A DNA stretch of 17,171 nt, taken from IMG/VR virus record IMGVR_UViG_2778261277_000005; one strand, written 5' to 3'. The position numbers and the translations under genes were made by a program. The notes beneath the pieces were generated by a model, which had not been told where the DNA came from, did not search any database, and saw only the letters and a list, made by a program, of their open reading frames with translations. Shown in pieces: positions 1-17,171 of this stretch. Position 1 is the first letter of the stretch; each line of letters opens with the position of its first letter. The stretch is from a virus (lineage: Duplodnaviria > Heunggongvirae > Uroviricota > Caudoviricetes).

Positions 1-416
1 CTCCCGGTCAGTTCACGGATCAACACCGTGAGCAGCTCTGGCGATGGATTTTCCAGCGTCATGTTACCGTGACGGAATTCCACCTTGCAGGAACTGGCAC
101 TGACTCTGGTCTGAGTGGAAGTGGATAAAGACGGCGCAATGGCCGCCACAGGTTCTTTCTGCTCATCCGGCGTTATTTCTACAGGTAATAATTCAACGCC
201 AGTGTCAGAAGAGGTCGTTACCGGAAGACGCCGCGAAACACGCCCTTCGTTCTGCCAGAGCCTGAGCCATTTGAAAATAACATTATCATTGACGCCATTT
301 TCACGTGCAATCTGTGCAACACAAGCTCCAGGTTGTGATGCCAGTTCCACCATACGAAGTTTGAATTCATTCGAATAGTTTTTACGAGGTTCTTTTCGCC
401 AGTCCTGTAATTCCAT
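1..416 (-). CDS. Insertion-sequence OrfA/TnpA-like helix-turn-helix protein (IS66- or IS3-type), N-terminal ~138 codons; ORF continues beyond the window start
   Basis: Reverse-complement translation from the ATG at 416..414 is stop-free to position 1: MELQDWRKEPRKNYSNEFKLRMVELASQPGACVAQIARENGVNDNVIFKWLRLWQNEG... The 'NYSxEFK...ARxxGV...WxxxxQxG' pattern is the classic transposase OrfA HTH signature. Not in the ORF track because it has no stop inside the window. Opposite in orientation to the phage late operon. Confidence 0.55.
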   Translation of the reverse strand, partial: MELQDWRKEPRKNYSNEFKLRMVELASQPGACVAQIARENGVNDNVIFKWLRLWQNEGRVSRRLPVTTSSDTGVELLPVEITPDEQKEPVAAIAPSLSTSTQTRVSASSCKVEFRHGNMTLENPSPELLTVLIRELTG

Positions 417-501
417 ACTTAGATGTCCGTCTATATCAGATGGGCGTCTAAGTTACCAATTCTCGTCTGATGGCTACATACGGCGGTCAGTTTACGCTTA
501 C
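1..501 (-). mobile_element. Partial insertion sequence (one terminus plus start of orfA); candidate terminus near 495-501
   Basis: Minus-strand sequence reading inward from ~501 starts 5'-GTAAGCGTAAACTGACC..., consistent with my recollection that IS66-family inverted repeats begin GTAAGCG. The orfA ATG lies ~85 nt inside this end. Terminase homology begins only downstream of ~540. The boundary is uncertain (476-570 possible). Confidence 0.4.
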
Positions 502-573
502 GATAAGGCCCGCGAGCATTCTAAAAAGCGCCTCGACAGAACGTTCAGAAGCAGTGCGGCGGTAAAGAAAAGA

Positions 574-2286
574 ATGAGTCCACGTCGTAACGACAATAAT
601 GTCCATGATAAGACGTTCAGGGATGGCTCGTTCCTTAAAATTGGTTGGCCCTCGGTCAACATTATGTCGTCGTCGGATTACCGGTTTGTCGCCTTAACCG
701 ATTACGACCGTTTTCCGGAGAATATCGACAGCGAGGGTGATGGTTTCTCCCTGGCCTCAAAACGTACCACCACATTTATGTCCGCCGGGATGACTCTGGT
801 GGAGAGCTCGCCGGGACGTGACATCTGCGACAGCAAATGGCGACGTAAGTCGCCTCATGAAGCGCCACCGACGACTGGTATTCTTTCCCTTTACAATCGT
901 GGTGACCGCCGCCGCTGGTACTGGCCATGTCCGCACTGCGGTGAATATTTTCAGCCAGCTATGGATGCCATGACCGGCTACCGTAATGAACCGGATCCCT
1001 TTAAAGCCAGTGAGGCGGCGTATCTACTTTGCCCGCACTGCAGCGGCATTATCACTGCGGAGAAAAAGCGTGAGCTCAATAGTGCAGGAGTCTGGTTACG
1101 TGAAGGTCAGGTCATTGATCGTAACGGCAACGTTTCCGGTGAACCGCGCCGCTCCCGTATCGCCAGTTTCTGGATGGAAGGGCCAGTTGCTGCGTATCAG
1201 ACCTGGGCGCAACTGGTTTACAAATTACTGACTGCAGAACAGGAGTATGAAGCGACAGGAAGCGAAGAAACACTCAGGGCGGTTATCAACACCGACTGGG
1301 GATTACCTTATCTTCCTCGTGCCAGCATGGAGCAACGAAAAAGTGAACTGCTTGAGCAGCGGGCAGAGCCAGTTCCTTCCCGCAGTGTTCCGGATGGCGT
1401 TAATTTCCTTGTGGCGACAGTGGATGTGCAGGCGGGACGTCATCGCCGTTTTGTGGTTCAGGTAACGGGCTATGGCAGCCGTGGCGAACGCTGGATTATT
1501 GATCGTTACAACATCACGCAGTCATTGCGCAGTGACTGCGACGGGGAGAGCCAGCGAATTGATCCGGCCAGCTATCCGGAAGACTGGGATGTCCTGCTGA
1601 CGGATGTTTTTCATAAAAGCTGGCCGCTGGCCTCCGATCCTTCTCAACAAATGCGACTGATGGCAATGGCGGTGGATTCCGGCGGTGAAGACGGGGTCAC
1701 TGATAATGCCTATAAATTCTGGCGTCGTTGCCGTCGTGATGGCCTTGGTAAACGTATTTACCTGTTTAAGGGCGACAGCATCCGGCGCGCAAAACTGATC
1801 AGCCGTACATTCCCTGATAACACCGGACGAACGGGCCGCCGGGCGCAGGCCGCAGGTGATGTGCCGCTCTGGCTTCTTCAGACGGATGCCCTGAAAGACC
1901 GGGTGAATAACGCGTTATGGCGTGACTCGCCAGGTCCAGGCTATGTGCATTTCCCTGACTGGCTGGGGAGCTGGTTTTACGACGAACTGACGTATGAAGA
2001 GCGGAGCAGTGACGGGAAATGGAGTAAGCCGGGTCGCGGTGCCAACGAAGCTTTTGACCTGATGGTGTATGCCGAGGCGCTGGTCATTCTGCATGGATAC
2101 GAAAAGATCCGCTGGCCGGATGCACCGGAGTGGGCGAGTCGGGAAACCTGGCTGGAGTGTGTCCCGGACAGTACCGAACCGTCACCCTCACCGGAGCCGG
2201 TATCCACGCCTGTTAAAAAACAAAAACGGAAGAAAACAGTAACTGACGATGTTAACCCCTGGCTGACTTCCGGAGGATGGTTATGA
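574..2286 (+). CDS. Terminase large subunit, GpA (lambda A) family, 5'-truncated: lacks the N-terminal ATPase/Walker A region
   Basis: The 570-aa ORF aligns to roughly residues 140-641 of lambda gpA by recollection (e.g. WYWPCPHCGEYF vs lambda VACPHCGEEQY; FLVATVDVQAGRHRRFVV...WIIDR vs lambda YLTAGIDSQLDRYEMRVW...WLIDR). Four-Cys motif CPHCG...CPHCSG present. The same frame is open upstream through ~502 into the IS junction, so 574 is only the first ATG. Stop overlaps the next gene start (ATGA). Confidence 0.8.
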   Translation: MSPRRNDNNVHDKTFRDGSFLKIGWPSVNIMSSSDYRFVALTDYDRFPENIDSEGDGFSLASKRTTTFMSAGMTLVESSPGRDICDSKWRRKSPHEAPPTTGILSLYNRGDRRRWYWPCPHCGEYFQPAMDAMTGYRNEPDPFKASEAAYLLCPHCSGIITAEKKRELNSAGVWLREGQVIDRNGNVSGEPRRSRIASFWMEGPVAAYQTWAQLVYKLLTAEQEYEATGSEETLRAVINTDWGLPYLPRASMEQRKSELLEQRAEPVPSRSVPDGVNFLVATVDVQAGRHRRFVVQVTGYGSRGERWIIDRYNITQSLRSDCDGESQRIDPASYPEDWDVLLTDVFHKSWPLASDPSQQMRLMAMAVDSGGEDGVTDNAYKFWRRCRRDGLGKRIYLFKGDSIRRAKLISRTFPDNTGRTGRRAQAAGDVPLWLLQTDALKDRVNNALWRDSPGPGYVHFPDWLGSWFYDELTYEERSSDGKWSKPGRGANEAFDLMVYAEALVILHGYEKIRWPDAPEWASRETWLECVPDSTEPSPSPEPVSTPVKKQKRKKTVTDDVNPWLTSGGWL

Positions 2287-2495
2287 ATCAGAATGATATT
2301 GAAGCCATGATTCAGCGTTATACGGAAGCTGAAATGGCGGTGCTGGACGGAAAATCCGTCACTTTTAATGGTCAGCAGATGACCATGGAAAACTTATCTG
2401 AGATCCGGCAGGGACGGCAGGAGTGGGAGCGCCGCCTTGCGGCTCTGATTACACGACGACGGGGGCATCCCGGGTACCGGCTGGCGAGGTTCTGA
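2283..2495 (+). CDS. W: Head completion / head-tail joining protein, gpW family
   Basis: 70 aa; ATG at 2283 overlaps the terminase stop (ATGA), with GGAGG ~6 nt upstream. C-terminal '...TRRRGHPGY' resembles the lambda W C-terminus ('...QRRRGPAGFYV'). Position between terminase and portal is as in lambda. Confidence 0.75.
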   Translation: MNQNDIEAMIQRYTEAEMAVLDGKSVTFNGQQMTMENLSEIRQGRQEWERRLAALITRRRGHPGYRLARF

Positions 2496-4003
2496 TGGCA
2501 ATTCTTGATGATGTGATTGGCGTTTTTTCACCAGGATGGAAAGCGGCAAGGCTGCGTTCCCGTGCGGTGATTCAGGCTTATGAGGCCGTAAAAACGACGC
2601 GGACACACAAAGCCCGACGGGAGAACCGAACTGCCGACCAGTTAAGCCAGTACGGGGCCGTGTCGTTACGTGAGCAGGCCCGTTACCTTGATAACAACCA
2701 CGATCTGGTCATTGGTGTATTTGACAAGCTGGAAGAACGGGTGGTGGGGAAAAACGGGATTATTGTCGAGCCACATCCGGTATTACGCAATGGGGCCATT
2801 GCCCGTGATCTGGCAGCGGAGATACGCACCCGATGGAGTGAATGGTCTGTCAGTCCGGAAGTCACCGGGCAGTTTACCCGTCCGATGCTGGAACGTCTGA
2901 TGCTGCGTACCTGGCTGCGCGATGGTGAGGTGTTTGCCCAGATGGTTTCCGGGCGCATAAACAGCTTGACGCCTTCTGCCGGTGTTCATTTCTGGCTGGA
3001 GGCGCTCGAGCCGGACTTTATTCCCATGACCAGTGATGAGAGCAACAGGCTGAATCAGGGCGTGTTTGTTGATGACTGGGGGCGTCCCGAAAAATATCTG
3101 GTGTATAAAAGCCGTCCCGTATCCGGGCGGCAGATGGAAACCAAAGAAGTGGATGCAGAGCGAATGCTGCATCTTAAATTTGTTCGCCGTCTGCACCAGA
3201 TGCGCGGGACGTCTTTGTTGTCCGGTGTGCTGATCCGCCTCAGTGCTCTGAAAGAGTATGAAGATTCTGAGCTGACTGCAGCAAGGATCGCCGCTGCTCT
3301 GGGGATGTACATCCGGAAAGGCGACGGACAGAGCTATGAAACGGATGGTAATGACAGCAAGGAGAATGAACGCGAGCTTACCATTCAGCCAGGCATTATT
3401 TACGACGATCTGAAACCCGGCGAAGAAATCGGAATGGTGAAGTCGGATCGCCCCAATCCTAACCTTGAAACTTTTCGTAATGGTCAGTTGCGTGCCGTGG
3501 CTGCGGGCAGTCGTCTGAGTTTTTCCAGTACAGCGCGCAACTATAACGGCACTTACAGCGCCCAGCGTCAGGAGCTGGTTGAATCTACTGATGGCTACCT
3601 GATCCTGCAGGACTGGTTTATTGGTGCCGTCACCCGCCCGATGTACCGTGCCTGGCTGAAACAGGCTGTGGCATCCGGTGTTATCAGGCTACCCCGCGAT
3701 CTGGACCGATCTTCACTGTATACCGCGGTGTATTCCGGACCGGTGATGCCGTGGATTGACCCTGTTAAGGAGGCTGAGGCCTGGAAAATTCAGATTCGTG
3801 GTGGAGCGGCGACAGAATCAGACTGGGTACGTGCAGGTGGTCGTAATCCGGATGATGTCAAACGTCGGCGCAAGGCCGAAATTGATGAAAACCGCAAGCT
3901 GGATCTGGTATTTGATACCGATCCGGCCAGTGATAAAGGAGGCAGCAGTGCCGCAACGAAACGACAGGAGCCGCAGCACACCGACGACCAGTCCGAAGAA
4001 TAA
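2495..4003 (+). CDS. Portal protein (lambda B-type family)
   Basis: 502 aa from the ATG overlapping the W stop (TGATG); the ORF-track start at 2423 is an in-frame upstream extension that overlaps W. Size and position are typical for a portal; sequence is diverged from lambda B. Confidence 0.8.
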   Translation: MAILDDVIGVFSPGWKAARLRSRAVIQAYEAVKTTRTHKARRENRTADQLSQYGAVSLREQARYLDNNHDLVIGVFDKLEERVVGKNGIIVEPHPVLRNGAIARDLAAEIRTRWSEWSVSPEVTGQFTRPMLERLMLRTWLRDGEVFAQMVSGRINSLTPSAGVHFWLEALEPDFIPMTSDESNRLNQGVFVDDWGRPEKYLVYKSRPVSGRQMETKEVDAERMLHLKFVRRLHQMRGTSLLSGVLIRLSALKEYEDSELTAARIAAALGMYIRKGDGQSYETDGNDSKENERELTIQPGIIYDDLKPGEEIGMVKSDRPNPNLETFRNGQLRAVAAGSRLSFSSTARNYNGTYSAQRQELVESTDGYLILQDWFIGAVTRPMYRAWLKQAVASGVIRLPRDLDRSSLYTAVYSGPVMPWIDPVKEAEAWKIQIRGGAATESDWVRAGGRNPDDVKRRRKAEIDENRKLDLVFDTDPASDKGGSSAATKRQEPQHTDDQSEE

Positions 4004-4016
4004 TTCCTGGTTCAGG

Positions 4017-5975
4017 ATGCAGGCAGGTCACCAGAGTGACGCGGATATTTATATTTATGACGAGATTGGTTTCTGGGGTGTTACAGCGAAGCAGTTTATC
4101 AGTGATCTGAATGCACTGGGCGATATCACCCACATTAATCTCCATATTAATTCACCGGGTGGCGATGTCTTTGAAGGCATCGCCATTTTTAATGCACTGA
4201 AAACACATGGTGCGTCCATTACCGTTTATGTCGACGGTGTGGCGGCGTCAATGGCGTCGGTCATTGCGATGGTGGGAAACCCGGTCATTATGCCGGAAAA
4301 CTCCTTCATGATGATTCATAAACCATTTGGCTTTACGGGCGGTGATGCGGAGGACATGCGCACCTATGCCGACCTGCTCGATAAAGTTGAGGCGGTTCTG
4401 TTACCCGCTTATGCACAGAAAACCGGGAAAACCACCGATGAAATTGCTGCCATGCTGGCGGATGAGACCTGGATGTCCGGTGCCGAATGTCTGGCACAGG
4501 GATTTGCTGATCAGGTGACACCAGCCGTTAAGGCAATGGCATGTATTCAGTCAAAACGTACAGAGGAATTTAAAAAGATGCCGGAATCCATTCGAAACAT
4601 GATTACTCCGCCACGCAACAGTGCTCCACGCGTACAGGATGATGAACCTGCAGCCTCCCGGACGCCAGTGCAGGCAGCAGCACCCGTGGTGGATGAAAAC
4701 AGTATCCGTGCGCAGGTACTGGCAGAGCAAAAAGCGCGTGTAAACGGTATTAATGATCTGTTTGCCATGTTTGGCGGGCGTTATCAGATGCTGCAGGCCC
4801 AGTGTCTTGCCGATCCTGAATGTTCGCTGGAGCAGGCCCGTGAAAAGCTGTTGAACGAGATGGGGCGCGAGTCCACGCCATCCAATAAAAATACCCCGGC
4901 TCATATTTATGCCGGTAACGGTAATTTTGTGGGGGACGGGATCCGCCAGGCGCTGATGGCGCGTGCCGGATTTGAAAAAACCGAACGTGATAATGTCTAC
5001 AACGGGATGACCCTGCGTGAATATGCCCGTATGTCACTAACTGAACGGGGTATTGGGGTTTCCGGTTATAACCCGATGCAGATGGTCGGTGCGGCGTTCA
5101 CACACAGTACGTCTGACTTCGGTAATATTCTGCTGGATGTTGCGAACAAAGCCATTCTGCAGGGCTGGGAAGATGCCCCTGAAACCTATGAACAGTGGAC
5201 GCGGAAAGGTCAGTTGTCTGATTTTAAAATTGCCCATCGTGTGGGTATGGGGGGCTTCAGTGCTCTGCGTCAGGTGCGTGAAGGGGCGGAATATAAATAC
5301 GTCACCACCGGAGATAAACAGGCCACTATTGCACTGGCGACCTATGGCGAGCTGTTCAGTTTCACCCGTCAGGCCATTATCAATGATGATCTGAATATGC
5401 TGACCGATGTCCCGATGAAACTGGGCCGTGCGGCGAAATCCACTATTGCCGATCTGGTTTATGCCATTCTGACGTCTAACCCGAAAATCTCCACAGATAA
5501 TGTAAGTCTGTTCGATAAAGCGAAACATGCAAACGTACTGGAGAGCGCTGCAATGGACGTGGCATCGCTGGATAAAGCCCGCCAGTTGATGCGCGTTCAG
5601 AAAGAGGGGGAGCGTCATCTGAATATTCGTCCTGCGTTCGTACTGGTACCGACGGCGATGGAGTCTGTTGCTAACCAGGTCATTCGCTCCTCAAGTGTCA
5701 AGGGGGCTGACATTAACGCCGGTATTATTAACCCGGTGAAAGATTTTGCGACCGTTATTGCAGAGCCTCGTCTTGATGATAACAGCCAGACCACCTTCTA
5801 CCTGGCTGCGTCAAAAGGCTCCGATACGATTGAAGTGGCTTATCTCAACGGTGTGGATACGCCATATATTGATCAGATGGAGGGCTTCAGTGTGGATGGC
5901 GTGACAACGAAAGTGCGTATTGACGCCGGTGTCGCGCCAGTTGATCACCGCGGTCTGGTGAAATGTACGGCGTAA
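4017..5975 (+). CDS. Fused prohead protease (ClpP/S14-like) - linker/scaffold - major capsid protein (HK97 fold)
   Basis: The N-terminal ~200 aa carry a ClpP-like serine protease signature (HINSPGGDVFEGIAIF..., GVAASMASVI..., MMIHKP); a Pro/Ala/Gln-rich linker follows; the C-terminal ~380 aa resemble major capsid proteins. Start chosen at the first ATG after the portal stop (MQAGHQSDADIYIYDE...); the ORF-track start at 3756 overlaps the portal. Confidence 0.8.
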   Translation: MQAGHQSDADIYIYDEIGFWGVTAKQFISDLNALGDITHINLHINSPGGDVFEGIAIFNALKTHGASITVYVDGVAASMASVIAMVGNPVIMPENSFMMIHKPFGFTGGDAEDMRTYADLLDKVEAVLLPAYAQKTGKTTDEIAAMLADETWMSGAECLAQGFADQVTPAVKAMACIQSKRTEEFKKMPESIRNMITPPRNSAPRVQDDEPAASRTPVQAAAPVVDENSIRAQVLAEQKARVNGINDLFAMFGGRYQMLQAQCLADPECSLEQAREKLLNEMGRESTPSNKNTPAHIYAGNGNFVGDGIRQALMARAGFEKTERDNVYNGMTLREYARMSLTERGIGVSGYNPMQMVGAAFTHSTSDFGNILLDVANKAILQGWEDAPETYEQWTRKGQLSDFKIAHRVGMGGFSALRQVREGAEYKYVTTGDKQATIALATYGELFSFTRQAIINDDLNMLTDVPMKLGRAAKSTIADLVYAILTSNPKISTDNVSLFDKAKHANVLESAAMDVASLDKARQLMRVQKEGERHLNIRPAFVLVPTAMESVANQVIRSSSVKGADINAGIINPVKDFATVIAEPRLDDNSQTTFYLAASKGSDTIEVAYLNGVDTPYIDQMEGFSVDGVTTKVRIDAGVAPVDHRGLVKCTA

Positions 5976-5997
5976 ACGTCGCAGACAACAACTCTGA

Positions 5998-6020
5998 TGG
6001 CCCGTAAGGGCTTTTTTTGT
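5998..6020 (+). terminator. Putative intrinsic terminator after the capsid gene
   Basis: GCCC-GTAA-GGGC short hairpin immediately followed by TTTTTTT, about 25 nt after the capsid stop codon. Confidence 0.45.
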
Positions 6021-6061
6021 ACCTGAAATCAGCCCCTGAACGGGGCTGTGCGGAGACAGTT

Positions 6062-6385
6062 ATGGCAAAGAATTTTGTAGAAGAAGGAAAAACGGTGGCG
6101 ATTGTTGCCAGTGCAGCCATCAGCAGCGGAGATCTGGTGCAGGTGGGCGATGTTTTTGCGGTGGCGCTGACCGATATTCCACAGGGTGAAACAGGCGACG
6201 GCATGACCGAAGGTGTGTTTATGCTGCCTAAGCTGAAAACGGATGACATGAAAACGGGTAAGAAGGTTTATCTGAAGTCCGGAAAAGTTCAGCTGACTAA
6301 CAGCGGCTCTGATCCGCTGGTCGGGGTTGTCTGGGCAGATGCCGGAACCAGTGCAGAAGAAGTGCCGGTAAAACTCAATGTCTGA
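6062..6385 (+). CDS. DUF2190-family small head protein (putative capsid decoration/cement protein)
   Basis: 107 aa from MAKNFVEEGKTV...VGVVWADAG...VPVKLNV, preceded by GGAGA; it resembles the ~110-aa DUF2190 proteins that commonly follow major capsid genes. The ORF-track start at 6017 is an upstream extension. Confidence 0.55.
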   Translation: MAKNFVEEGKTVAIVASAAISSGDLVQVGDVFAVALTDIPQGETGDGMTEGVFMLPKLKTDDMKTGKKVYLKSGKVQLTNSGSDPLVGVVWADAGTSAEEVPVKLNV

Positions 6386-6653
6386 TCCCTTTTCCCGGCT
6401 GGCAGCGCGTATGGATGCTATCACGGTTAGAAAGATGGGAAAGACAGCCTCGATTAATGATGTCGATATGACTGTGATCCCGGGAGAAACACTGGCAGAG
6501 CTGAATGCTCTGTCCGGACCTGCGGTCTCTCTGGTGGTGTTTTCTTCGGGATACCGCCCACGGCGCGGGGATCGCGTTGTTTATGACGGACAACAATGGA
6601 CGGTCACACGGCATGAACGTTTTAACGGTAAGCCAATGATCTTTATTGAGTAA
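6378..6653 (+). CDS. Head-tail connector protein, lambda FII-like
   Basis: 91 aa. 'RRGDRVVYDGQQWTVTR' matches the lambda FII 'RRGDTLTIGEENFWVDR' region by recollection, and the N-terminus 'FSRLAARMDAI' resembles FII 'FDAAIARADETI'. Start overlaps the previous stop. Confidence 0.65.
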   Translation: MSDPFSRLAARMDAITVRKMGKTASINDVDMTVIPGETLAELNALSGPAVSLVVFSSGYRPRRGDRVVYDGQQWTVTRHERFNGKPMIFIE

Positions 6654-6664
6654 AGAGGTGTGGG

Positions 6665-7243
6665 ATGAAGGGGCTTGAGAATGCCATCCGTAATCTGAAC
6701 AGCCTTGATACCCGTATGGTGCCACAGGCCAGCGCATGGGCGATAAACCGTGTGGCACAGAAAGCGGTCTCGGTCGCCACCCGGCAGGTTGCCGGGAATA
6801 CCGTTGCGGGAGATAACCAGGTGAAAGGGATCCCCCTGAAACTGGTACGTCAGCGTGTCCGGGTGTTTAAAGCCAGTCCGTCAGGAAAAATGACGGCCAG
6901 GATCCGCGTTAACCGGGGCAATCTGCCCGCTATTAAGCTGGGGACAGCCCGGGTCAGACTGGCCCGGCGTGGTGGAAAACTGCAGTACCGTGGCAGTGTG
7001 CTGAAGGTGGGTAAATATCTTTTCCGGGATGCGTTTATTCAGCAACTGGCGAATGGTCGCTGGCATGTGATGCGGCGTATTGATGGCAAAAATCGTTACC
7101 CCATTGATGTGGTGAAAGTCCCGCTGTCCGGACCGCTGACACAGGCATTTGAAGATGCCCGCGACCGCATTATTGCTGCGGAAATGCCGAAACAGCTGGG
7201 GTATGCACTGAAACAACAACTGAGGTTATGGCTGACCCGATGA
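6665..7243 (+). CDS. Z: Minor tail protein Z (tail completion)
   Basis: 192 aa, the same length as lambda Z; strongly lambda-Z-like (AINRVA..., IRVNRGNLPAIKLG, QQLANGRWHVMRR, GKNRYPIDVVKVP, LGYALKQQLR). GAGGTG RBS upstream. Confidence 0.85.
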   Translation: MKGLENAIRNLNSLDTRMVPQASAWAINRVAQKAVSVATRQVAGNTVAGDNQVKGIPLKLVRQRVRVFKASPSGKMTARIRVNRGNLPAIKLGTARVRLARRGGKLQYRGSVLKVGKYLFRDAFIQQLANGRWHVMRRIDGKNRYPIDVVKVPLSGPLTQAFEDARDRIIAAEMPKQLGYALKQQLRLWLTR

Positions 7244-7641
7244 ACCGACATACACAAATCCGCCAGGCCGTACTGGCACGCCTTCGGGAACAGTGTGGAG
7301 ACAGCGCCACGTTTTTTGACGGGCTTCCGGCATTTATTGATGCGCAGGAACTGCCTGCCGTGGCGGTGTGGCTGAGTGATGCTCAGTACACCGGAAAAAT
7401 GACGGATGAAGATGACTGGCAGGCTGTTCTGCATATTGCTGTCTTCATCCGGGCACAGGCACCGGATTCAGAGCTGGATATGTGGATGGAGAGCACCATT
7501 TTCCCGGCCCTGAATGATATACCGGCACTTTCCGGACTCATCGACACCCTGATCCCTCTCGGTTTTAACTATCAACGTGATAATGAGATGGCCACCTGGG
7601 CGATGGCGGAAATCACGTACCAGATCACGTACACGAATTAA
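7240..7641 (+). CDS. U: Tail terminator protein U
   Basis: ATG at 7240 overlaps the Z stop (ATGA). MNRHTQIRQAVLARL...ATFFDG...PAVAVWL...PDSELDMWMES...IPALS...ITYTN parallels lambda U almost residue for residue by recollection. The ORF-track start at 7228 is a short upstream extension. Confidence 0.9.
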   Translation: MNRHTQIRQAVLARLREQCGDSATFFDGLPAFIDAQELPAVAVWLSDAQYTGKMTDEDDWQAVLHIAVFIRAQAPDSELDMWMESTIFPALNDIPALSGLIDTLIPLGFNYQRDNEMATWAMAEITYQITYTN

Positions 7642-7652
7642 AGGAGGTGGCA

Positions 7653-8396
7653 ATGACCACACCAAATCCACTGGCAAAAACGAAAGGTGCGGGAACGACG
7701 TTCTGGATGTACACCGGCAAGGGCGATGCGTTTGCGAACCCTTTATCGGACACTGACTGGCTGCGTCTTGCGATGGTGAAGGATCTGCAACCTGGCGAAA
7801 TGACCGCTGATGCAGAAGATGACACTTATCTCGATGATGAAGATGCAGACTGGAAAACGACAACCCAGGGGCAGAAATCCGTTGGTGATACTTCGGCGAC
7901 GCTGGCCTGGCGTCCGGGTGACAGCGGGCAGAAAAAACTGGTTCAGTTGTTCGACTCCGGTGAAGTCTGCGCGTTTCGTATCAAATATCCCAACGGCACT
8001 GTTGATGTTTTCCGTGGCTGGCTGAGCTCACTGGGTAAAACCATTGCCTCAAAAGACGTGATGACCCGCACAGTGAAAATCAGCGGTGTGGGGCGTCCGT
8101 ATCTGGCAGAGGAAGGCACTGAAACAGTGAGCGTTACCGGGCTGACGGTGGCACCGGCATCTGCCAGTGTAAAAGTGGGAGCAACCACCACGCTGACCTT
8201 TACAGTAAAACCTGACGGAGCCAGTGACAAAGCGATCAGTGTGCATTCGACAGATCCACAGACTGCCACGGTGACCCTGAACGGGCTTGTGGCCACGGTG
8301 AAAGGCGTGAAGCAGGGCAGTGTCAGCATTGTGGGCATGACTTCTGACGGCGATTTTGTGGCAGTGGCTGCGGTGGCTGTCAGCGCCGCAGGTTAA
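7653..8396 (+). CDS. V: Major tail tube protein V with C-terminal Ig-like (Big_2-type) domain
   Basis: AGGAGG RBS, then ATG (MTTPNPLAKTKGAGTT...). Matches lambda V (KGAGTT, YANPLSD, YLDDEDADW, QGQKS.GDTS, NGTVDVFRGW), and the C-terminal ~90 aa are Thr/Val/Ser-rich like the lambda V Ig-like domain. The ORF-track start at 7647 is a GTG two codons upstream. Confidence 0.9.
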   Translation: MTTPNPLAKTKGAGTTFWMYTGKGDAFANPLSDTDWLRLAMVKDLQPGEMTADAEDDTYLDDEDADWKTTTQGQKSVGDTSATLAWRPGDSGQKKLVQLFDSGEVCAFRIKYPNGTVDVFRGWLSSLGKTIASKDVMTRTVKISGVGRPYLAEEGTETVSVTGLTVAPASASVKVGATTTLTFTVKPDGASDKAISVHSTDPQTATVTLNGLVATVKGVKQGSVSIVGMTSDGDFVAVAAVAVSAAG

Positions 8397-8414
8397 CAGG
8401 ACGATACTCATCAT

Positions 8415-8440
8415 TTGCCCCGGTTATCCGGGGCTTTTTT
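8415..8440 (+). terminator. Intrinsic terminator between V and G
   Basis: GCCCCGG-TTAT-CCGGGGC (7-bp GC stem) followed by TTTTTT, ~20 nt after the V stop. The ORF-track TTG start for G (8415) lies inside this hairpin and is rejected. Confidence 0.6.
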
Positions 8441-8456
8441 GCAGGTGGAGAACATG

Positions 8457-8843
8457 ATGTTTCTGAAACAGGGCACGTTTAATTATGAAAAGCAGTCCGT
8501 GGTGCTCAGTGAGCTGTCCGGGCTGCAGAGAATTGAATATCTGGCGTTTGTTCAGCAGCGAACGGCAAAGTTTGATGCCGAAGAGGGAGAACTGCCGGAG
8601 GCTGAACGACAGATTGCTTTTCTGCGGATGGGGATGGATATCAATGCCTGGCTGGTTTCCCGCTCACTGTGGAATGCGGAACAGTCTCAGGATGTTGAGA
8701 CGCTTTGCGCATCCGTTATTACAACATGGTCGTATGATGCCCTGGGAGCGGGGGCGGAGATGGTTCTGTCGCTGAGCGGTATGGGAGTCATTGAGAATGC
8801 CGGGGATTTGGAGCATGAGGTGCTGACGCCGGAAAAGTCCTGA
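8457..8843 (+). CDS. G: Tail assembly chaperone G
   Basis: Starts MFLKQGTF... (lambda G starts MFLKTESF...), with GGAG upstream; 128 aa; located immediately upstream of the tape measure gene. Confidence 0.85.
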   Translation: MFLKQGTFNYEKQSVVLSELSGLQRIEYLAFVQQRTAKFDAEEGELPEAERQIAFLRMGMDINAWLVSRSLWNAEQSQDVETLCASVITTWSYDALGAGAEMVLSLSGMGVIENAGDLEHEVLTPEKS

Positions 8844-9181
8844 CGCGGGAAATGCAGTTTGTCATGCGGCTTGCCCGGGAGTTCCGGCGGGCAGACTGGC
8901 GGCGGATGCTGTCGGAAATGTCGGCCACTGAGCTTGGTGAGTGGGGCGATTATTTCCGGATGCAGAGCTTCAGTGATGTGTGGATGGATGCGCAGTTTGC
9001 CTCGCTGAAGGCATTGATCGTGAGAATGGTGTCCGGTAGCAGTGATGCTGCGGTGGCTGATTTCAGCCTTTTACCGGAAGAGAACGGGATACCGGAGCGA
9101 ACGGACGAAGAACTGATGCATCTTGGGGAAGGTATTTCCGGAGGTGTGCGTTATGGACCAGATAGCCAACCTGGTCATTGA
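8457..9181 (+). CDS. T: Tail assembly chaperone G-T fusion, produced by programmed -1 ribosomal frameshift near the 3' end of G
   Basis: The 8852..9181 ORF is in the -1 frame relative to G, and that frame is stop-free across the G stop codon. This mirrors the conserved G/GT arrangement of lambda-like tail modules. Candidate slip region is CCGGAAAAG, ~8829-8837. Confidence 0.7.
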
Positions 9182-12100
9182 TTTGGGGATTGATGCGGCA
9201 GAGTTTAAAAATGAAATTCCCCGTATCAAAAACCTTCTGAATGGTGCAGCCAGCGATGCAGAACGGTCTTCTGCCCGTATGCAGCGTTTTATGGAGCGTC
9301 AGACTCAGGCCGCCCGGCAGACAACGCAGGCAGCTTCTTCGGCTGCAACAGCCGCATCCGTCCATGCGCAGACGGTGGAGAAGAACGCACAGGCTCATGA
9401 ACGCATGGCCCGCGAGGTGGAGAAAACCCGCCAGCGCATGGAGGCACTGAGCCAGAAAATGCGCGAGGAACAGGCGCAGGCCATGGCTCTGGCGGAGGCT
9501 CAGGATAAAGCGGCTGCTGCGTTTTATCGTCAGATTGACAGTGTGAAACAGGCCAGTGCGGGGCTGCAGGAATTACAGCGTATTCAGCAGCAGATCCGAC
9601 AGGCCAGAAACAGTGGCGGGATTGGTCAGCAGGATTATCTGGCGCTGATTTCTGAGGTTACTGCGAAAACTCGTGTTCTTACACAGGCTGAGGAAGAGGC
9701 TACCCGACAGAAAGTGGCGTTTATCCGTCAGCTTAAAGAGCAGGCAACCCGCCAGAATCTTTCTTCTTCTGAGTTGCTTCGTGCTAAGGCTGCCCAGCTG
9801 GGGGTAAGCAGTGCTGCAGAAGTGTATATCCGCAAAATGGAGCAGGCAGGAAAAGCCACGCATTCGCTGGGTCTGAAAAGTGCAGCGGCCCGCCAGGAGA
9901 TAGGCGTTCTGATAGGTGAACTGGCTCGCGGCAATTTAGGTGCGCTGAGGGGATCCGGGATAACGCTGGCTAACCGTGCCGGATGGATAGACACACTGAT
10001 GTCACCGAAAGGCATGATGCTGGGCGGGGTTATTGGCGGTATTGCCGCGGCCGTCTATGGTCTGGGTAAAGCCTGGTATGATGGTCAGAAGGAGGGGGAA
10101 GAATTTAACCGCCAGTTGTCGCTGACGGGGCATTATGCCGGAGTCACTGCCGGGCAGCTGTGGACGCTCAGTCGTGCTATTTCCGGGAATGGTATCACGC
10201 AACATGCTGCAGCCGGTGCGCTGGCTCAGGTGGTGGGGAGTGGTGCATTTCGTGGAAACGATATCGGTATGGTGGCGAGAGCTGCCGCACAGATGGAGCG
10301 ATCGGTTGGCCAGTCGGTCAGCGATACCATAAATCAGTTTAAGCGGCTGAAGGATGATCCTGTAAATGCCGCGAAGGCTCTGGACAATGAGCTGCATTTT
10401 CTTACTGCCACTCAGCTTGAGCAGATACGCGTCCTTGGGGAACAGGGGCGGTCCAGTGATGCGGCACGGATAGCCATGTCTGCACTGGCAGAGGAAACCG
10501 GTCGGCGTACTGCGGATATTGATAATAACCTCAATGCGCTGGGCAGTACGCTGAAGTATCTGTCTGATTTATGGAGTCGTTTCTGGGATGCGGCCATGAA
10601 TATTGGTCGTGAAGACTCGCTGGATGAACAGATTTCCGCTTTACAGGAGAAAGTGTCGCGGGCGAAAAGACTCCCCTGGACGGCATCATCTTCTCAGGTT
10701 GAGTACGATCAGCAGCGTCTTAACGAGCTTCAGGAGAAAAAACGCCAGAAGGATTTGCAGGATGCAAAAGAGCAGGCAGAGCAGAATTATCAGGAGCAAC
10801 AGAAACGCCGTAATGCTGAAAATGCTGCACTGAACCGGATGAATGAAACGGAAGCAGCACGACATCAGCGTGAAATTGCGCGTATTAATTCCATGCAGTA
10901 CGCCGATCAGGCTGTCAGGGATGCGGCGATACAACGTGAAAATGAACGTTACGAGAAAGCCCTGGCATCCGGTAAGAAAAAAACACGCGAACCCCGTAAT
11001 GATGAGGCCACCCGGTTATTGCTGCAGTACAGTCAGCAACAGGCACAGGTGGAAGGACAGATTGCTGCTGTCAGACAGTCAGCAGGCATTGCCACGGAAA
11101 GGATGACAGAAGCGCATAAACAGCTTCTGGCTCTGCAGCAGCGCATCAGCGACCTGGACGGGAAAAAACTGACGGCAGATGAAAAGAGTGTGCTGGCCCG
11201 TAAAGATGAACTGATTCAGGCACTGACGCTGCTGGATGTAAAACAGCAGGAGCTTCAGAAACAGACGGCACTCAACGAGCTGAAGAAAAAAACAATTCAG
11301 CTGACCAGTCAACTGGCTGAAGAAGAGCGCGCTCAGCGTCAGCAACATGACCTGGATATCGCCACGGTGGGTATGGGTGATCAGCAGCGGCAGCGATATC
11401 AGGTACAACTGAGTCTTCGCCAGAAATACCAGCAACAGCTGGAGCAGTTGAGGCGGGATAGTGAGCAGAAAGGAACATATAACACGGATGACTACAGAAA
11501 GGCCGAGCAGGCGCTGACGGAGAGCCTGAACCGACAACTGAATGAGAATCGCCGTTACTGGCAACAGCTTGAAGTTGTGCAGGGTAACTGGAAAAACGGA
11601 GTCCTGCGTGCATTTCAGAATTTTACCGTGGATGCAGATAATACGGCAGGAACAGCAGAACAGGTGTTCTCGTCAGCCTTCAGCAACATGGGAAATGGCC
11701 TGGCAACTTTTGTCACTACCGGCAAACTCAATTTCAAATCCTTCACCTCTTCTGTGCTGTCAGACATGGCGAAAATCCTGGCGCAGGCAACCATGATGAA
11801 ATCGATAAAAGGGATTGGCAGTGTACTGGGATTTGATCTCAGCAGCCTTTCCCTGAATGCCAATGGGGGGATTTATCAGTCTGCTGATTTGAGTCGTTAC
11901 AGTGGCACGGTGGTTAACCGTCCGACGTTTTTTGCTTTTGCAAAAGGCGCGGGTGTGATGGGGGAAGCGGGACCTGAAGCCATTCTGCCACTGCGTCGTG
12001 GTGCTGACGGTAAGCTGGGGGTTGTGGCGGATATTGGTGGTTCAGGTATGGCGATGTTTGCCCCGCAGTACAACATCGAGATCAATAACGATGGCACGAA

Positions 12101-12218
12101 CGGGCAGATAGGTCCGGCTGCCCTGAAGGTGGTTTATGACCTCGGGAAAAAAGCGGCAGCGGACTTTATGCAACAGCAGGCCCGTGATGGTGGTCGGTTA
12201 AGTGGAGCATATCGGTAA
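9153..12218 (+). CDS. H: Tail tape measure protein H
   Basis: ~1021 aa from the ATG preceded by GGAGG (MDQIANLVIDLGID...); the ORF-track start at 9123 is an upstream extension. Long Q/A/E/R-rich coiled-coil central region; directly downstream of G/T. Stop overlaps the M start (TAATG). Confidence 0.9.
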   Translation: MDQIANLVIDLGIDAAEFKNEIPRIKNLLNGAASDAERSSARMQRFMERQTQAARQTTQAASSAATAASVHAQTVEKNAQAHERMAREVEKTRQRMEALSQKMREEQAQAMALAEAQDKAAAAFYRQIDSVKQASAGLQELQRIQQQIRQARNSGGIGQQDYLALISEVTAKTRVLTQAEEEATRQKVAFIRQLKEQATRQNLSSSELLRAKAAQLGVSSAAEVYIRKMEQAGKATHSLGLKSAAARQEIGVLIGELARGNLGALRGSGITLANRAGWIDTLMSPKGMMLGGVIGGIAAAVYGLGKAWYDGQKEGEEFNRQLSLTGHYAGVTAGQLWTLSRAISGNGITQHAAAGALAQVVGSGAFRGNDIGMVARAAAQMERSVGQSVSDTINQFKRLKDDPVNAAKALDNELHFLTATQLEQIRVLGEQGRSSDAARIAMSALAEETGRRTADIDNNLNALGSTLKYLSDLWSRFWDAAMNIGREDSLDEQISALQEKVSRAKRLPWTASSSQVEYDQQRLNELQEKKRQKDLQDAKEQAEQNYQEQQKRRNAENAALNRMNETEAARHQREIARINSMQYADQAVRDAAIQRENERYEKALASGKKKTREPRNDEATRLLLQYSQQQAQVEGQIAAVRQSAGIATERMTEAHKQLLALQQRISDLDGKKLTADEKSVLARKDELIQALTLLDVKQQELQKQTALNELKKKTIQLTSQLAEEERAQRQQHDLDIATVGMGDQQRQRYQVQLSLRQKYQQQLEQLRRDSEQKGTYNTDDYRKAEQALTESLNRQLNENRRYWQQLEVVQGNWKNGVLRAFQNFTVDADNTAGTAEQVFSSAFSNMGNGLATFVTTGKLNFKSFTSSVLSDMAKILAQATMMKSIKGIGSVLGFDLSSLSLNANGGIYQSADLSRYSGTVVNRPTFFAFAKGAGVMGEAGPEAILPLRRGADGKLGVVADIGGSGMAMFAPQYNIEINNDGTNGQIGPAALKVVYDLGKKAAADFMQQQARDGGRLSGAYR

Positions 12219-12547
12219 TGGAGACGTTTCACTGGAAAGTGCGCCCGGATATGAATGTGGTATCAGAGCCGAAAGTGGTGACAGTGAAGCTGGGCGATGG
12301 TTATGAACAGCGTCGTGCGGCGGGACTGAATAACCAGTTGTCGATTTACAGCGTGACGATACGTGTTCGTAAATGTGAACACCCATCTTTAAAAGCCTTT
12401 CTGGAACGGCACGGTGGCGTCCGCGCATTTCAGTGGACGCCACCTTATGACTGGAAGCCGATCAGGGTGGTTTGTCGTAAATGGTCGGCAAGCGTGGGGG
12501 CGCTGTGGGTAACCATAACGGCAGATTTTGAACAGGTCGTGGCATAG
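12218..12547 (+). CDS. M: Minor tail protein M (tail tip)
   Basis: 109 aa, the same length as lambda M; METFHWKV...GDGYEQR...YSVT...HGG...WTPPYDW...FEQVV parallels lambda M by recollection. Confidence 0.9.
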   Translation: METFHWKVRPDMNVVSEPKVVTVKLGDGYEQRRAAGLNNQLSIYSVTIRVRKCEHPSLKAFLERHGGVRAFQWTPPYDWKPIRVVCRKWSASVGALWVTITADFEQVVA

Positions 12548-12556
12548 GAGGCCCTG

Positions 12557-13255
12557 ATGCAGGATATTTCACAGGAAACACATCATGAGACGACACGCCT
12601 CACTCAGTCAGCCCAGGTGGTGCTCTGGGAAATCGATCTGACAGTGGTCGGTGGTGAACGTTATTTTTTCTGTAATGAGCAGAACGATAAAGGTGAGCCG
12701 GTCACCTGGCAGGGGCGACAGTATCAGGCGTATCCCATTCAGGGGACGGGATTTGAACTGAACGGCAAAGGCAGTGCTGCCCGTCCGACACTGACGGTTT
12801 CTAACCTGCACGGCATGGTCACCGGGATGGCGGAAGACCTGCAGAGTCTGGTCGGAGGAACGGTGGTCCGGCGTAAGGTTTACGCCCGTTTTCTGGATGC
12901 GGTGAACTTCGTCAACGGAAACAGTGACGCCGATCCGGAGCAGGAGGTGATCAGCCGCTGGCGCATCGAGCAGTGCAGTGAACTGAGCGCGGTGAGTGCC
13001 TCTTTTGTACTGTCCACGCCGACGGAAACGGACGGTGCCGTTTTTCCGGGACGTATCATGCTGGCCAACACCTGCACCTGGACCTATCGCGGTGATGAGT
13101 GCGGTTATCACGGTCCGGCGGTCGCGGATGAATATGATCAGCCGACGTCCGATATCACGAAGGATAAATGCAGCAAATGCCTGAGCGGCTGTAAGTTTCG
13201 CAATAACGTCGGCAACTTTGGCGGCTTCCTTTCCATTAACAAACTTTCGCAGTGA
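12557..13255 (+). CDS. L: Minor tail protein L (tail tip, C-terminal Cys cluster)
   Basis: 232 aa, the same length as lambda L; near-identical blocks (VVLWEIDLT, GGERYFFCNEQN, VTWQGRQYQ, GMVTGMAEDLQSLVGGTVVRRKVYARFLDAVNFVNGNS, KDKCSKCLSGCKFRNNVGNFGGFLSINKLSQ). AGGAGG RBS. Confidence 0.92.
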   Translation: MQDISQETHHETTRLTQSAQVVLWEIDLTVVGGERYFFCNEQNDKGEPVTWQGRQYQAYPIQGTGFELNGKGSAARPTLTVSNLHGMVTGMAEDLQSLVGGTVVRRKVYARFLDAVNFVNGNSDADPEQEVISRWRIEQCSELSAVSASFVLSTPTETDGAVFPGRIMLANTCTWTYRGDECGYHGPAVADEYDQPTSDITKDKCSKCLSGCKFRNNVGNFGGFLSINKLSQ

Positions 13256-13260
13256 ATCCC

Positions 13261-14004
13261 ATGACAGAGACAGAATCAGCGATTCTGGCGCACGCCCGGC
13301 GATGTGCGCCAGCGGAGTCGTGCGGCGTCGTGGTGAGAACACCGGAGGGGGAAAGATATTTTCCCTGCGTGAATATATCCGGTGAGCCGGAGGAGTATTT
13401 CCGGATGTCGCCGGAGGACTGGCTGAGTGCAGAAATGCAGGGAGAGATTGTGGCGCTGGTCCACAGCCACCCCGGTGGTCTGCCCTGGCTGAGTGAGGCC
13501 GACCGGCGGCTGCAGGTGCAGAGTGATTTGCCGTGGTGGCTGGTCTGCCGGGGGGCGATTCATAAATTCCGCTGTGTGCCGCATCTCACCGGGCGGCGCT
13601 TTGAGCACGGGGTGACGGACTGTTACACGCTGTTCCGGGACGCTTACCATCTGGCGGGAATTGAGATGCCGGATTTTCATCGCGGGGATGACTGGTGGCG
13701 TCACGGTCAGAATCTCTATCTGGATAATCTGGAGGCCACAGGGCTGTATCAGGTGCCGTTGTCATCAGCACAACCGGGCGATGTGCTGCTGTGCTGCTTT
13801 GGTTCATCGGTGCCGAATCATGCCGCCATTTACTGTGGTGACGGCGAGCTGCTGCACCATATTCCTGAACAACTGAGCAAACGAGAGAGGTATACCGACA
13901 AATGGCAGCGACGCACACACTCCCTCTGGCGTCACCGGGCATGGCGCGCATCTGCCTTTACGGGGATTTACAACGATTTGGCCGCCGCATCGATCTGCGT
14001 GTGA
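13261..14004 (+). CDS. K: Tail tip assembly protein K (JAB/MPN metalloprotease-like plus NlpC/P60-like domains)
   Basis: ATG just after the L stop (MTETESAIL...). JAMM-like motif 'VHSHPGG...SEAD'; downstream Cys/His-containing region (DCYTLF..., NHAAIYCG) typical of the NlpC/P60 domain of lambda K. The 3' end overlaps I in another frame, as in lambda. Confidence 0.85.
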   Translation: MTETESAILAHARRCAPAESCGVVVRTPEGERYFPCVNISGEPEEYFRMSPEDWLSAEMQGEIVALVHSHPGGLPWLSEADRRLQVQSDLPWWLVCRGAIHKFRCVPHLTGRRFEHGVTDCYTLFRDAYHLAGIEMPDFHRGDDWWRHGQNLYLDNLEATGLYQVPLSSAQPGDVLLCCFGSSVPNHAAIYCGDGELLHHIPEQLSKRERYTDKWQRRTHSLWRHRAWRASAFTGIYNDLAAASICV

Positions 14005-14426
14005 AAACGGGGGCCGAAGCCATCCGGGCGCTGGCCATGCAGATCCCGGCGTTTCGTCAGAAGCTGAGCGACGGCTGGTATCAGGTACGCATTGCCGGGC
14101 GTGATACAGGTGAAACGGAATTATCAGCCCGTCTTAATGAACCGCTGGCAAATGGTGCTGTGATCCATATCGTGCCGCGTCTGGCGGGAGCCAAAAGTGG
14201 CGGTGTGTTTCAGGCTGTGCTGGGGGCGGCTGTTATGGCGGTTGCTATATGGATGCCGGGGGTAGGAATTATGGCGAGTAATCTGCTGTTTTCTCTCGGT
14301 GCCAGTATGACGCTTGGCGGTGTTGCACAGATGCTGGCCCCTAAACCCAAAACCCCCCGCACACAGACAACGGATAACGGCAAACAGAACACCTATTTTT
14401 CTTCACTGGATAACATGGTTGCCTAG
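13902..14426 (+). CDS. I: Tail tip assembly protein I, ending at an in-frame TAG; the C-terminal 38 codons continue in frame to 14543
   Basis: MAATHTLPLASPGMARICLYGDLQRFGRRIDLRVKTGAEAIRALA... is essentially the lambda I N-terminus. The ORF ends ...YFSSLDNMVA-TAG, and the same frame continues GNVLPVLYGEMRVGSRVVSQEISTADEGDGGQVVVIGR-TGA, which matches the lambda I C-terminus, where Q (CAG) occupies the TAG position. Confidence 0.85.
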   Translation: MAATHTLPLASPGMARICLYGDLQRFGRRIDLRVKTGAEAIRALAMQIPAFRQKLSDGWYQVRIAGRDTGETELSARLNEPLANGAVIHIVPRLAGAKSGGVFQAVLGAAVMAVAIWMPGVGIMASNLLFSLGASMTLGGVAQMLAPKPKTPRTQTTDNGKQNTYFSSLDNMVA

Positions 14427-14561
14427 GGCAATGTTCTGCCTGTTCTGTACGGTGAAATGCGCGTGGGGTCACGCGTGGTTTCTCAGGAGATCAGCACGGC
14501 AGACGAAGGGGATGGTGGTCAGGTTGTGGTGATTGGTCGCTGATGCAAAATGTTTTATGTG

Positions 14562-14585
14562 AAACCGCCTGCGGGCGGTTTTGTC
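14562..14585 (+). terminator. Hairpin plus T-rich tract between I and J (possible attenuator or RNA structure)
   Basis: AACCGCC-TGCG-GGCGGTT stem-loop followed by TTGTCGTTT, ~20 nt upstream of the J RBS. Confidence 0.35.
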
Positions 14586-14603
14586 GTTTATGGAGCGTGA
14601 GGA

Positions 14604-17171
14604 ATGGGTAAAGGAAGCAGTAAGGGGCATACCCCGCGCGAAGCGAAGGACAACCTGAAGTCCACGCAGTTGCTGAGTGTGATTGATGCCATCAGTGAAG
14701 GGCCGATTGAAGGTCCGGTGGATGGATTAAAAAGCGTGCTGCTGAACAGTACGCCGGTGCTGGACAGTGATGGGAATACCAACATCGCCGGTGTCACGGT
14801 GGTGTTCCGGGCTGGTGAGCAGGAGCAGACTCCGCCGGAGGGATTTGAATCCTCCGGCTCCGAGACGGTGTTGGGTACGGAAGTGAAATACGACACGCCG
14901 ATCACCCGCGCCATCACGTCGGCAAACATCGACCGACTGCGCTTTACCTTCGGTGTGCAGGCACTGGTGGAAACCACCTCAAAGGGGGACCGGAATCCGT
15001 CGGAAGTTCGCCTGCTGGTTCAGATACAGCGTAATGGTGGCTGGGTGACGGAAAAAGACATCACCATTAAGGGCAAAACCACCTCGCAGTATCTGGCCTC
15101 GGTGGTGGTGGATAACCTGCCGCCGCGCCCGTTTAATATCCGGATGCGCAGAATGACGCCGGACAGCACCACAGACCAGCTGCAGAACAAAACGCTCTGG
15201 TCGTCATACACCGAAATCATCGATGTGAAACAGTGCTACCCGAACACGGCACTGGTCGGCGTGCAGGTGGACTCGGAACAGTTCGGCAGCCAGCAGGTGA
15301 GCCGTAATTATCATCTTCGCGGGCGCATTCTGCAGGTGCCGTCGAACTATAACCCGCAGACGCGGCAATACAGCGGTATCTGGGACGGAACGTTTAAGCC
15401 AGCATACAGCAACAACATGGCCTGGTGTCTGTGGGATATGCTGACCCATCCGCGCTACGGCATGGGGAAGCGTCTCGGTGCGGCGGATGTGGACAAATGG
15501 GCGCTGTATGTCATCGGCCAGAATTGCGACCAGTCGGTGCCGGATGGCTTTGGTGGCACGGAGCCGCGCATCACCTGTAATGCCTGGCTGATCACACAGC
15601 GCAAGGCGTGGGATGTTCTCAGTGATTTCTGCTCGGCGATGCGCTGTATGCCGGTATGGAACGGGCAGACGCTGACGTTCGTGCAGGACCGACCGTCGGA
15701 TAAGGTGTGGACCTATAACCGCAGTAATGTGGTGATGCCGGATGATGGCGCGCCGTTCCGCTACAGCTTCAGTGCCCTGAAGGACCGTCATAATGCCGTT
15801 GAGGTGAACTGGATTGACCCGGATAACGGCTGGGAGACGGCGACAGAGCTTGTGGAGGACACGCAGGCCATTGCCCGTTACGGTCGTAACGTCACGAAGA
15901 TGGATGCCTTTGGCTGTACCAGCCGGGGGCAGGCACACCGCGCCGGGCTGTGGCTGATTAAAACGGAACTGCTGGAAACGCAGACCGTGGACTTCAGCGT
16001 GGGTGCCGAAGGGCTTCGCCATGTACCAGGTGATGTCATTGAAATCTGTGATGATGACTATGCGGGGATCAGCACCGGCGGGCGCGTGCTGGCGGTGAAC
16101 AGCCAGACCCGGACGCTGACGCTCGACCGTGAAATCACGCTGCCATCCTCCGGTACCACGCTGATAAGCCTGGTTGACGGAAGTGGCAATCCGGTCAGCG
16201 TGGAGGTCCAGTCCGTCACCGACGGCGTGAAGGTAAAAGTGAGCCGTGTTCCTGACGGCGTTGCCGGATACAGCGTGTGGGGGCTGAAGCTGCCGACGCT
16301 GCGCCAGCGCCTGTTCCGCTGCGTGAGTATCCGTGAGAACGACGACGGCACGTATGCCATCACCGCCGTGCAGCATGTACCGGAAAAAGAAGCCATCGTG
16401 GATAACGGGGCGCACTTTGACGGCGACCAGAGCGGCACGGTGAATGGTGTCACGCCGCCAGCAGTGCAGCACCTGACTGCCGAAGTCACCGCAGACAGCG
16501 GGGAATATCAGGTGCTGGCGCGCTGGGACACGCCGAAGGTGGTGAAGGGGGTGAGCTTTATGCTTCGCCTGACCGTAACAGCGGACGACGGCAGTGAGCG
16601 GCTGGTCAGCACGGCCCGGACGACAGAAACCACATACCGCTTCAGGCAGCTGGCGCTGGGGCGTTACACGCTGACGGTCCGGGCGGTAAATGCGTGGGGA
16701 CAGCAGGGCGATCCGGCATCGGTATCGTTCCGGATTGCCGCACCGGCAGCGCCGTCGCAGATTGAGCTGACACCCGGGTATTTTCAGATAACCGCCACGC
16801 CGCATCTTGCGGTTTATGATCCGACGGTACAGTTTGAGTTCTGGTTCTCGGAAAAGCGGATTGCGGATATCAGGCAGGTTGAAACCAGCGCGCGTTATCT
16901 TGGTACGGCGCTGTACTGGATAGCCGCCAGTATCAATATCAAACCGGGCCATGATTATTATTTTTACGTTCGCAGTGTGAATACCGTTGGCAAATCGGCA
17001 TTCGTGGAGGCTGTTGGTCGGCCGAGTGATGATGCTTCCGGCTATCTGGATTTTTTCAAAGGCGAGATAGGGAAAAGCCATCTGGCTCAGGAGTTGTGGA
17101 CGCAGATTGATAACGGTCAGCTTGCGCCTGACCTGGCTGAAATCAGGACGTCCATTACGGATGTCAGCAAT
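14604..17171 (+). CDS. J: Tail tip / host specificity protein J, N-terminal ~856 codons; 3' end beyond the window
   Basis: ATG at ~14604 preceded by GGAGCGTGAGG; the frame is open to the last base of the window (exactly 856 codons), which explains its absence from the ORF track (no stop in window). [54 protein letters not shown]... matches the lambda J N-terminus essentially residue for residue by recollection. Confidence 0.92.

Follow-up and report, generated by a model that had tools for sequence, protein, structure and literature searches.

The window, i.e. the whole stretch of 17,171 nucleotides analysed here, opens in the end of an insertion sequence (IS) and runs directly into a gene for a large terminase subunit (terL) deprived of its 5' end. 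What happened to this gene? It may have been truncated together with the other packaging determinants, or merely interrupted, and what is left may or may not sustain the packaging of DNA. The window is the whole of a draft contig, NLFZ01000054.1 of assembly GCA_002225765.1, whose left end lies in a repeated IS and whose right end lies in the tail-tip gene J, and the answer had partly to be looked for outside of it.

The first-pass annotation described a terminase frame open from the IS junction (~502) to 2286, in which the first ATG has no convincing Shine-Dalgarno sequence. We read the same: the IS ends at base 501, the frame is free of stops from 379 to 2286, i.e. it is already open upstream of 502, and its earliest ATG, GTG or TTG is the ATG at 574, preceded by the 20 nucleotides GTGCGGCGGTAAAGAAAAGA. 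This ATG was retained by the gene caller, giving a product of 570 aa (574–2286). No GGAG, GAGG or AGGA was found within 20 nt 5' of the in-frame starts from 574 to 970, and in the window the frame has no start of its own directly after terS, the first one being internal. Besides, a consensus scan of positions 300–800 on both strands gave no promoter-like site, the promoter/terminator scan remaining empty, so that nothing points to transcription of the terL fragment from an outward promoter of the IS.

In uninterrupted relatives the terL product has 699 aa (WP_000507030.1), and the alignment places base 502 at nucleotide 316 of the intact gene, the first of codon 106. The profile search that had been proposed to define the retained residues finds the ATPase domain incomplete: GpA_ATPase (PF05876) matches the window ORF at profile positions 67–247 of 247 only, while in the intact TerL it covers residues 40–303 (profile 2–247). 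GpA_nuclease (PF20454) is full in the window ORF (profile 1–294 of 294, E = 1.6e-86), and complete in the intact protein as well. The Walker A P-loop, GPARTGKT, occupies residues 71–78, thus 5' of the break at residue 105/106, and is absent from the window ORF; the retained part does begin after Walker A, as had been noticed at first reading. The fragment keeps the distal part of the ATPase domain with a CPHC...CPHC motif and the full nuclease domain (motif and nuclease part were seen as intact from the beginning), and lacks the N-terminal 105 residues. It is a gene fragment, an incomplete member of the GpA family. We observe in addition that its cysteine motif, CPHC-x32-CPHC at 902–1062, lies within the ATPase domain; it could be a zinc-ribbon-like insert common to GpA-type terminases.

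The gpA protein of phage lambda has the same two-domain architecture, GpA_ATPase and GpA_nuclease, but is distant: no megablast alignment with the present TerL was obtained. In a three-way alignment of the window fragment, the intact TerL and lambda gpA, GPARTGKT pairs with the lambda segment KSARVGYS, the Walker A region of lambda, so that the Walker A positions correspond; the P-loop is of the classical GxxxxGKT type here and deviant in lambda. The Cys-rich motif of lambda, CPHC...CEHNAC, aligns with CPHC...CPHC. The small subunits differ, DUF1441 here and Nu1 in lambda.

Table 1. Features of the window, with coordinates on NLFZ01000054.1
Feature	Position	Strand	Description
IS66-family element, terminal 501 bp	1–501	-	one end of a 2,532-bp element; 0 mismatches to the copy in CP027366.1
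tnpA	3–416	-	runs off the contig end; IS66 TnpA, Pfam HTH_Tnp_1
Target-site duplication, right copy (GATAAGGC)	502–509	+	8 bp; left copy on NLFZ01000013.1
terL, 3' fragment	502–2286	+	codons 106–699 of a 699-aa GpA-type TerL; Pfam and alignment
First in-frame start (ATG)	574–576	+	codon 130 of intact TerL; no Shine-Dalgarno
Head-tail adaptor (gpW-like)	2283–2495	+	ATG overlaps the terL stop (ATGA); GGAGGA at 2272–2277
Lambda-like head and tail module	2495–14543	+	Pfam and STEC1587 annotation; gapless alignment to the intact prophage
Amber codon (CAG to TAG)	14424–14426	+	codon 162 of 200 of a gpI-like tail-assembly gene (13941–14543)
Tail-tip gene J, 5' part	14604–17171	+	runs off the right contig end; repeated among lambdoid prophages

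If terL had been interrupted by a simple insertion, the 5' fragment should encode residues 1–105 followed by D-K-A and by a TAA brought by the IS end GTAAGCG. This predicted 108-aa product, ending in ...TEDKA, is present in the protein collection as an exact match; its coding sequence is located in the final 1.4 kb of a second contig of GCA_002225765.1, NLFZ01000013.1 (131,190 bp). The order on this contig is a cosN-like site, an intact DUF1441 terS, terL codons 1–105, GATAAGGC and the other IS end; a DDE_Tnp_IS66 transposase gene follows 3' of the 108-aa ORF, on the minus strand, up to the contig end, and the native terL start is there, 8 bp 3' of terS. The junctions (a slash marking the IS boundary) read ...ACCGAA GATAAGGC / GTAAGCGTTAACGG... 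on NLFZ01000013.1 and ...CGCTTAC / GATAAGGC CCGCGAG in the window; in longer form, ...GTGCAGATGACCGAA GATAAGGC / GTAAGCGTTAACGGAGCGCC... and ...CAGTTTACGCTTAC / GATAAGGC CCGCGAG..., respectively. The IS is thus flanked by the same 8 bp at its two ends, one in each contig, and they are found once only in uninterrupted alleles (two loci read). Duplications of 8 bp are also seen at independent insertions of IS66-family elements, ATCCATCC in LR881940 and ACATTATG in PCN061, and GTTGAAAG is that of a further IS copy. The two contigs are unjoined in the assembly, their linkage resting on the matching duplications and on the IS ends. Seven short metagenome contigs that seemed to stop 1–3 nt from the insertion site were discarded as junctions: they are uninterrupted sequence, recovered through a selection artefact, since a contig that happens to stop in codon 108 also yields this 108-aa sequence as a partial product.

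The element itself is of the IS66 family. Genes matching the tnpA of the window carry the PGAP annotation IS66-like TnpA, and on the minus strand the terminal repeat starts at base 501 with GTAAGCGTAAACTGACC, opening with GTAAGCG; this inverted repeat is found at both IS ends (GTAAGCGTTAACGGAGCGCC and GTAAGCGTAAACTGACCGCC). The 501 bp of the window and 1,035 bp of NLFZ01000013.1 are, with 0 mismatches, the two ends of one 2,532-bp IS, and hundreds of complete E. coli genomes align with the window from base 502 exactly. Of the gene set typical of the family, tnpA is in the window and the DDE_Tnp_IS66 gene on NLFZ01000013.1; the middle 996 bp of this IS copy being unassembled, the whole set tnpA-tnpB-tnpC was read from an identical full copy of 2,532 bp in E. 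coli 89-3156 (CP027366.1, in whose retrieved locus positions 4532–5032 correspond to the window part). ISEc23 and its relatives share with the present IS the GTAAGCG start of the repeat, the 8-bp duplication and tnpA-tnpB-tnpC in 2,532 bp. ISEc23 of PCN061 has 1 mismatch with window 1–501, but over the full length 95 of the 2,532 positions differ, and these differences are almost confined to the tnpC half, the first ~1,000 bp. Among complete genomes, only 36 records match the tnpC end (segment 10324–11358 of the NLFZ01000013.1 locus) at 99% or more. Judging from these comparisons, the IS in terL is a variant or a mosaic of ISEc23.

Altogether, these data make us confident that terL has been split by the simple insertion of a 2,532-bp IS66-family element with target-site duplication, nothing being deleted, a packaging failure being the expected outcome. 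Since the IS is multicopy, the short reads were assembled into separate contigs that stop within it, the window being the right-hand one. The view of the window as a deletion remnant, in which the insertion came with the loss of the 5' end of terL, of Nu1/terS and of cos, leaving the structural module orphaned, certainly fits the fact that only IS sequence lies 5' of base 502 in the window. However the opposite IS end, on NLFZ01000013.1, is bordered by the 5' end of terL, terS and the cosN-like site, with a matching 8-bp duplication, and a perfect duplication on both sides argues against an IS-adjacent deletion, which would leave none. We consider such a deletion very improbable. The initial description of a remnant without N-terminus, Nu1 and cos is thus right for the window alone and wrong for the genome, where these pieces are on NLFZ01000013.1. 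For annotation, the lesson is that a phage gene cut off where a draft contig stops in an IS is not to be taken for a deletion remnant. A rearrangement between two IS copies, rather than a single insertion, is formally possible.

A short-read draft with both contig ends in repeats also brings to mind a chimeric join at the IS-terL junction, terL being intact in the organism. Against such an artefact, two independently assembled junctions agree on the 8-bp duplication, and the left junction recurs in the Logan assemblies of runs SRR9162939 and SRR17480441, where, as a repeat would lead one to expect, the contigs extend no further than ~30 nt (k-1) beyond the IS boundary; moreover the look-ups made returned no uninterrupted contig from GCA_002225765.1. 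We give hardly any credit to a misassembly, even less than to a deletion, and keep the split of terL by a simple insertion after codon 105, in line with the disruption announced by the first-pass annotation.

To which prophage does this terL belong? The closest cultured phages over terS-terL are Tritos (OV696610.1, prophage 3 of E. coli LF82) and cdtI (NC_009514.1), at 99.4% and 99.1% DNA identity respectively, the allele compared being the intact one of STEC1587. Both have the same order cos, DUF1441 terS, terL, W-like adaptor and portal, but with an uninterrupted TerL of 699 aa, whereas here an IS follows codon 105; over residues 106–699, 2 of the 594 differ from Tritos and 5 from cdtI. The terS of NLFZ01000013.1 and that of STEC1587 encode the same protein, and the candidate cosN, GGGCGGGAGCGT, located 195 bp 5' of terS, resembles the lambda cohesive-end site GGGCGGCGACCT. 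The sequence GGGCGGGAGCGTCGCGG, at position 9270 of the NLFZ01000013.1 locus, is the one found from base 1 onward in the Tritos and cdtI records, and is closely like the left cohesive end of lambda, GGGCGGCGACCTCGCGG; the comparison of this locus with the left end of Tritos shows a 1-bp indel. The host prophage is a Tritos/cdtI-like (Qin-type) lambdoid cos prophage. Tritos undergoes spontaneous induction in LF82, was plaque-purified on an MG1655 derivative and was identified as a siphovirus by imaging (PMC9928086). As this near-identical phage forms plaques and produces DNA-filled infectious particles, the uninterrupted gene encodes a working terminase.

The age of the event can be estimated by comparison with the uninterrupted prophage of STEC1587, which looks complete (integrase, Q, lysis, head, tail and tail fibres). 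It aligns without gap with window 502–17171, 5 of the 16,670 bases being different. In TerL the change is A334V; the protease/capsid gene has one synonymous substitution, two neighbouring bases of J give R780K, and the gpI-like gene has CAG changed to TAG. On the other side of the insertion, the 10.3 kb compared by BLAST against STEC1587 are 99.98% identical (1 mismatch, 1 gap). The insertion is evidently recent, since so few differences separate it from an intact prophage of the same type and both copies of the duplication are perfect; a recent inactivation had indeed been suggested from the good state of the C-terminal part.

The course of events can be retraced as follows. The IS66-family element transposed into terL at codons 106–108, duplicating these three codons (GATAAGGC). 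The 5' piece, of 108 codons (residues 1–105 and DKA), would hold the P-loop and the N-terminus presumed to bind the small subunit; the 3' piece, of 594 codons, would hold the other ATPase motifs together with the nuclease and C-terminus, with no start signals of its own. In lambda, gpA binds the small subunit by its N-terminus and the portal by its C-terminus. As Walker A is now separated from the other parts of the ATPase fold, neither of the two pieces should power DNA translocation, and the 3' piece should be unable to join TerS at cos; cos cleavage and translocation would both fail. With an ATPase domain in two parts, TerL has almost certainly lost its activity, and DNA packaging is expected to be defective, except if a compatible terminase acts in trans or the IS leaves by precise excision.

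The terminase might nevertheless work in two pieces, either by complementation between the fragments or with the 570-aa product acting as a stand-alone nuclease/portal-binding protein. The gene caller accepts 574–2286, the nuclease domain and C-terminus are complete, and the 5' fragment keeps the native start. Against this possibility, the ATG at 574 and the later in-frame starts up to 970 lack a Shine-Dalgarno sequence, no promoter-like site was found in 300–800, the break falls within the ATPase fold, parting Walker A from the remaining motifs, and by analogy with lambda gpA the N-terminus binding the small subunit would be on the other fragment. A working split terminase is accordingly most unlikely, and we retain the reading of an inactive TerL.

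The downstream genes are a different matter. The gpW-like adaptor has its own GGAGGA upstream of the ATG, so that its translation is independent of terL, and the head and tail module that follows comprises the portal, a ClpP-protease/major-capsid fusion, DUF2190, Z, U, V, G/T, the tape measure, M, L, K and I. Late transcription of lambdoid phages is antiterminated by Q. By analogy with lambda, such transcription probably crosses the IS, in which case heads and tails could form and empty proheads would be expected. The first-pass annotation had counted the downstream structural genes as intact, and here it has to be corrected: the amber codon of the gpI-like gene means that the module is not fully so. 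It removes the C-terminal 39 residues (QGNVLPVLYGEMRVGSRV...), kept in every intact gpI-like homologue seen. The truncated product is on record for 2 contigs, the intact 200-aa protein for 1000 or more. A sequencing error is conceivable in a single draft, although a Logan assembly carries the same truncated product. The amber is probably a second inactivating lesion, which would compromise tail assembly. The observation made at first reading is confirmed, and its interpretation only partly supported. Beyond the gpI-like gene lies J, which the ORF tool does not list, as it continues past the end of the contig; a 625-aa ORF on the minus strand (15204–17081), considered as a gene replacing J, was rejected as a shadow ORF inside the GC-rich J.

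With two disabling lesions and about seven differences to an intact relative in ~27 kb, we have here a clean and datable case of early prophage decay, in which one precise excision, together with reversion or suppression of the one amber codon, would bring back the intact form. Qin of E. coli K-12 is heavily deleted. It shares the names of several upstream genes with the present prophage (rrrQ, rzpQ, cspI, ynfN and gnsB, with tfaQ further downstream), which by contrast is essentially full length, with only the two recent lesions.

Is the terminase region a preferred target of such elements? In prophages of the same type, ISEc23 occurs in terL of PCN061 (nt 472) and in terS of isolate 2015-01-2097 (LR881940, nt 222), at 2970–5501 of both retrieved loci, and each copy has its own 8-bp duplication. 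With the present one (terL nt 315), this makes three independent IS66-family sites within ~800 bp. Among the 5,426 complete E. coli genomes, no insertion at terL nt 315 was found and window 1–2600 is nowhere in one piece, the best two having the IS at other sites. That IS66-family elements hit terS-terL above chance, through a target preference or through selection for lysogens that do not package, is a doubtful proposition: the search that yielded the three sites was biased to such cases, with a possible ascertainment effect of the query, which makes the hotspot a lead of low probability. If the selection reading were true, the favoured lysogens would be those in which the lysis, moron and structural genes of the prophage are kept but its DNA cannot be packaged. 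The common orientation of the three insertions was not taken as evidence, for the query (tnpA end plus terL) could join only hits so oriented.

In the literature, the search for IS66 insertions into terminase genes brought up unrelated or generic papers only, and that for the assembly accession GCA_002225765.1 gave no match. The disruption of prophage genes by IS is a textbook route of prophage decay. The event is lineage-specific at the level of the site but of a known kind, ordinary prophage decay, and the split of terL opens no new question by itself.

A last observation concerns the morons located 5' of cos. Two of them, gnsB and ynfN, are frameshifted in some otherwise intact relatives (locus L005, 18061–18233; PCN061 locus, 316–545), in which cspI, ymcF and hokD are kept. 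According to PMC9928086, strain LF82 expresses these moron genes of its Tritos prophage at a high level.
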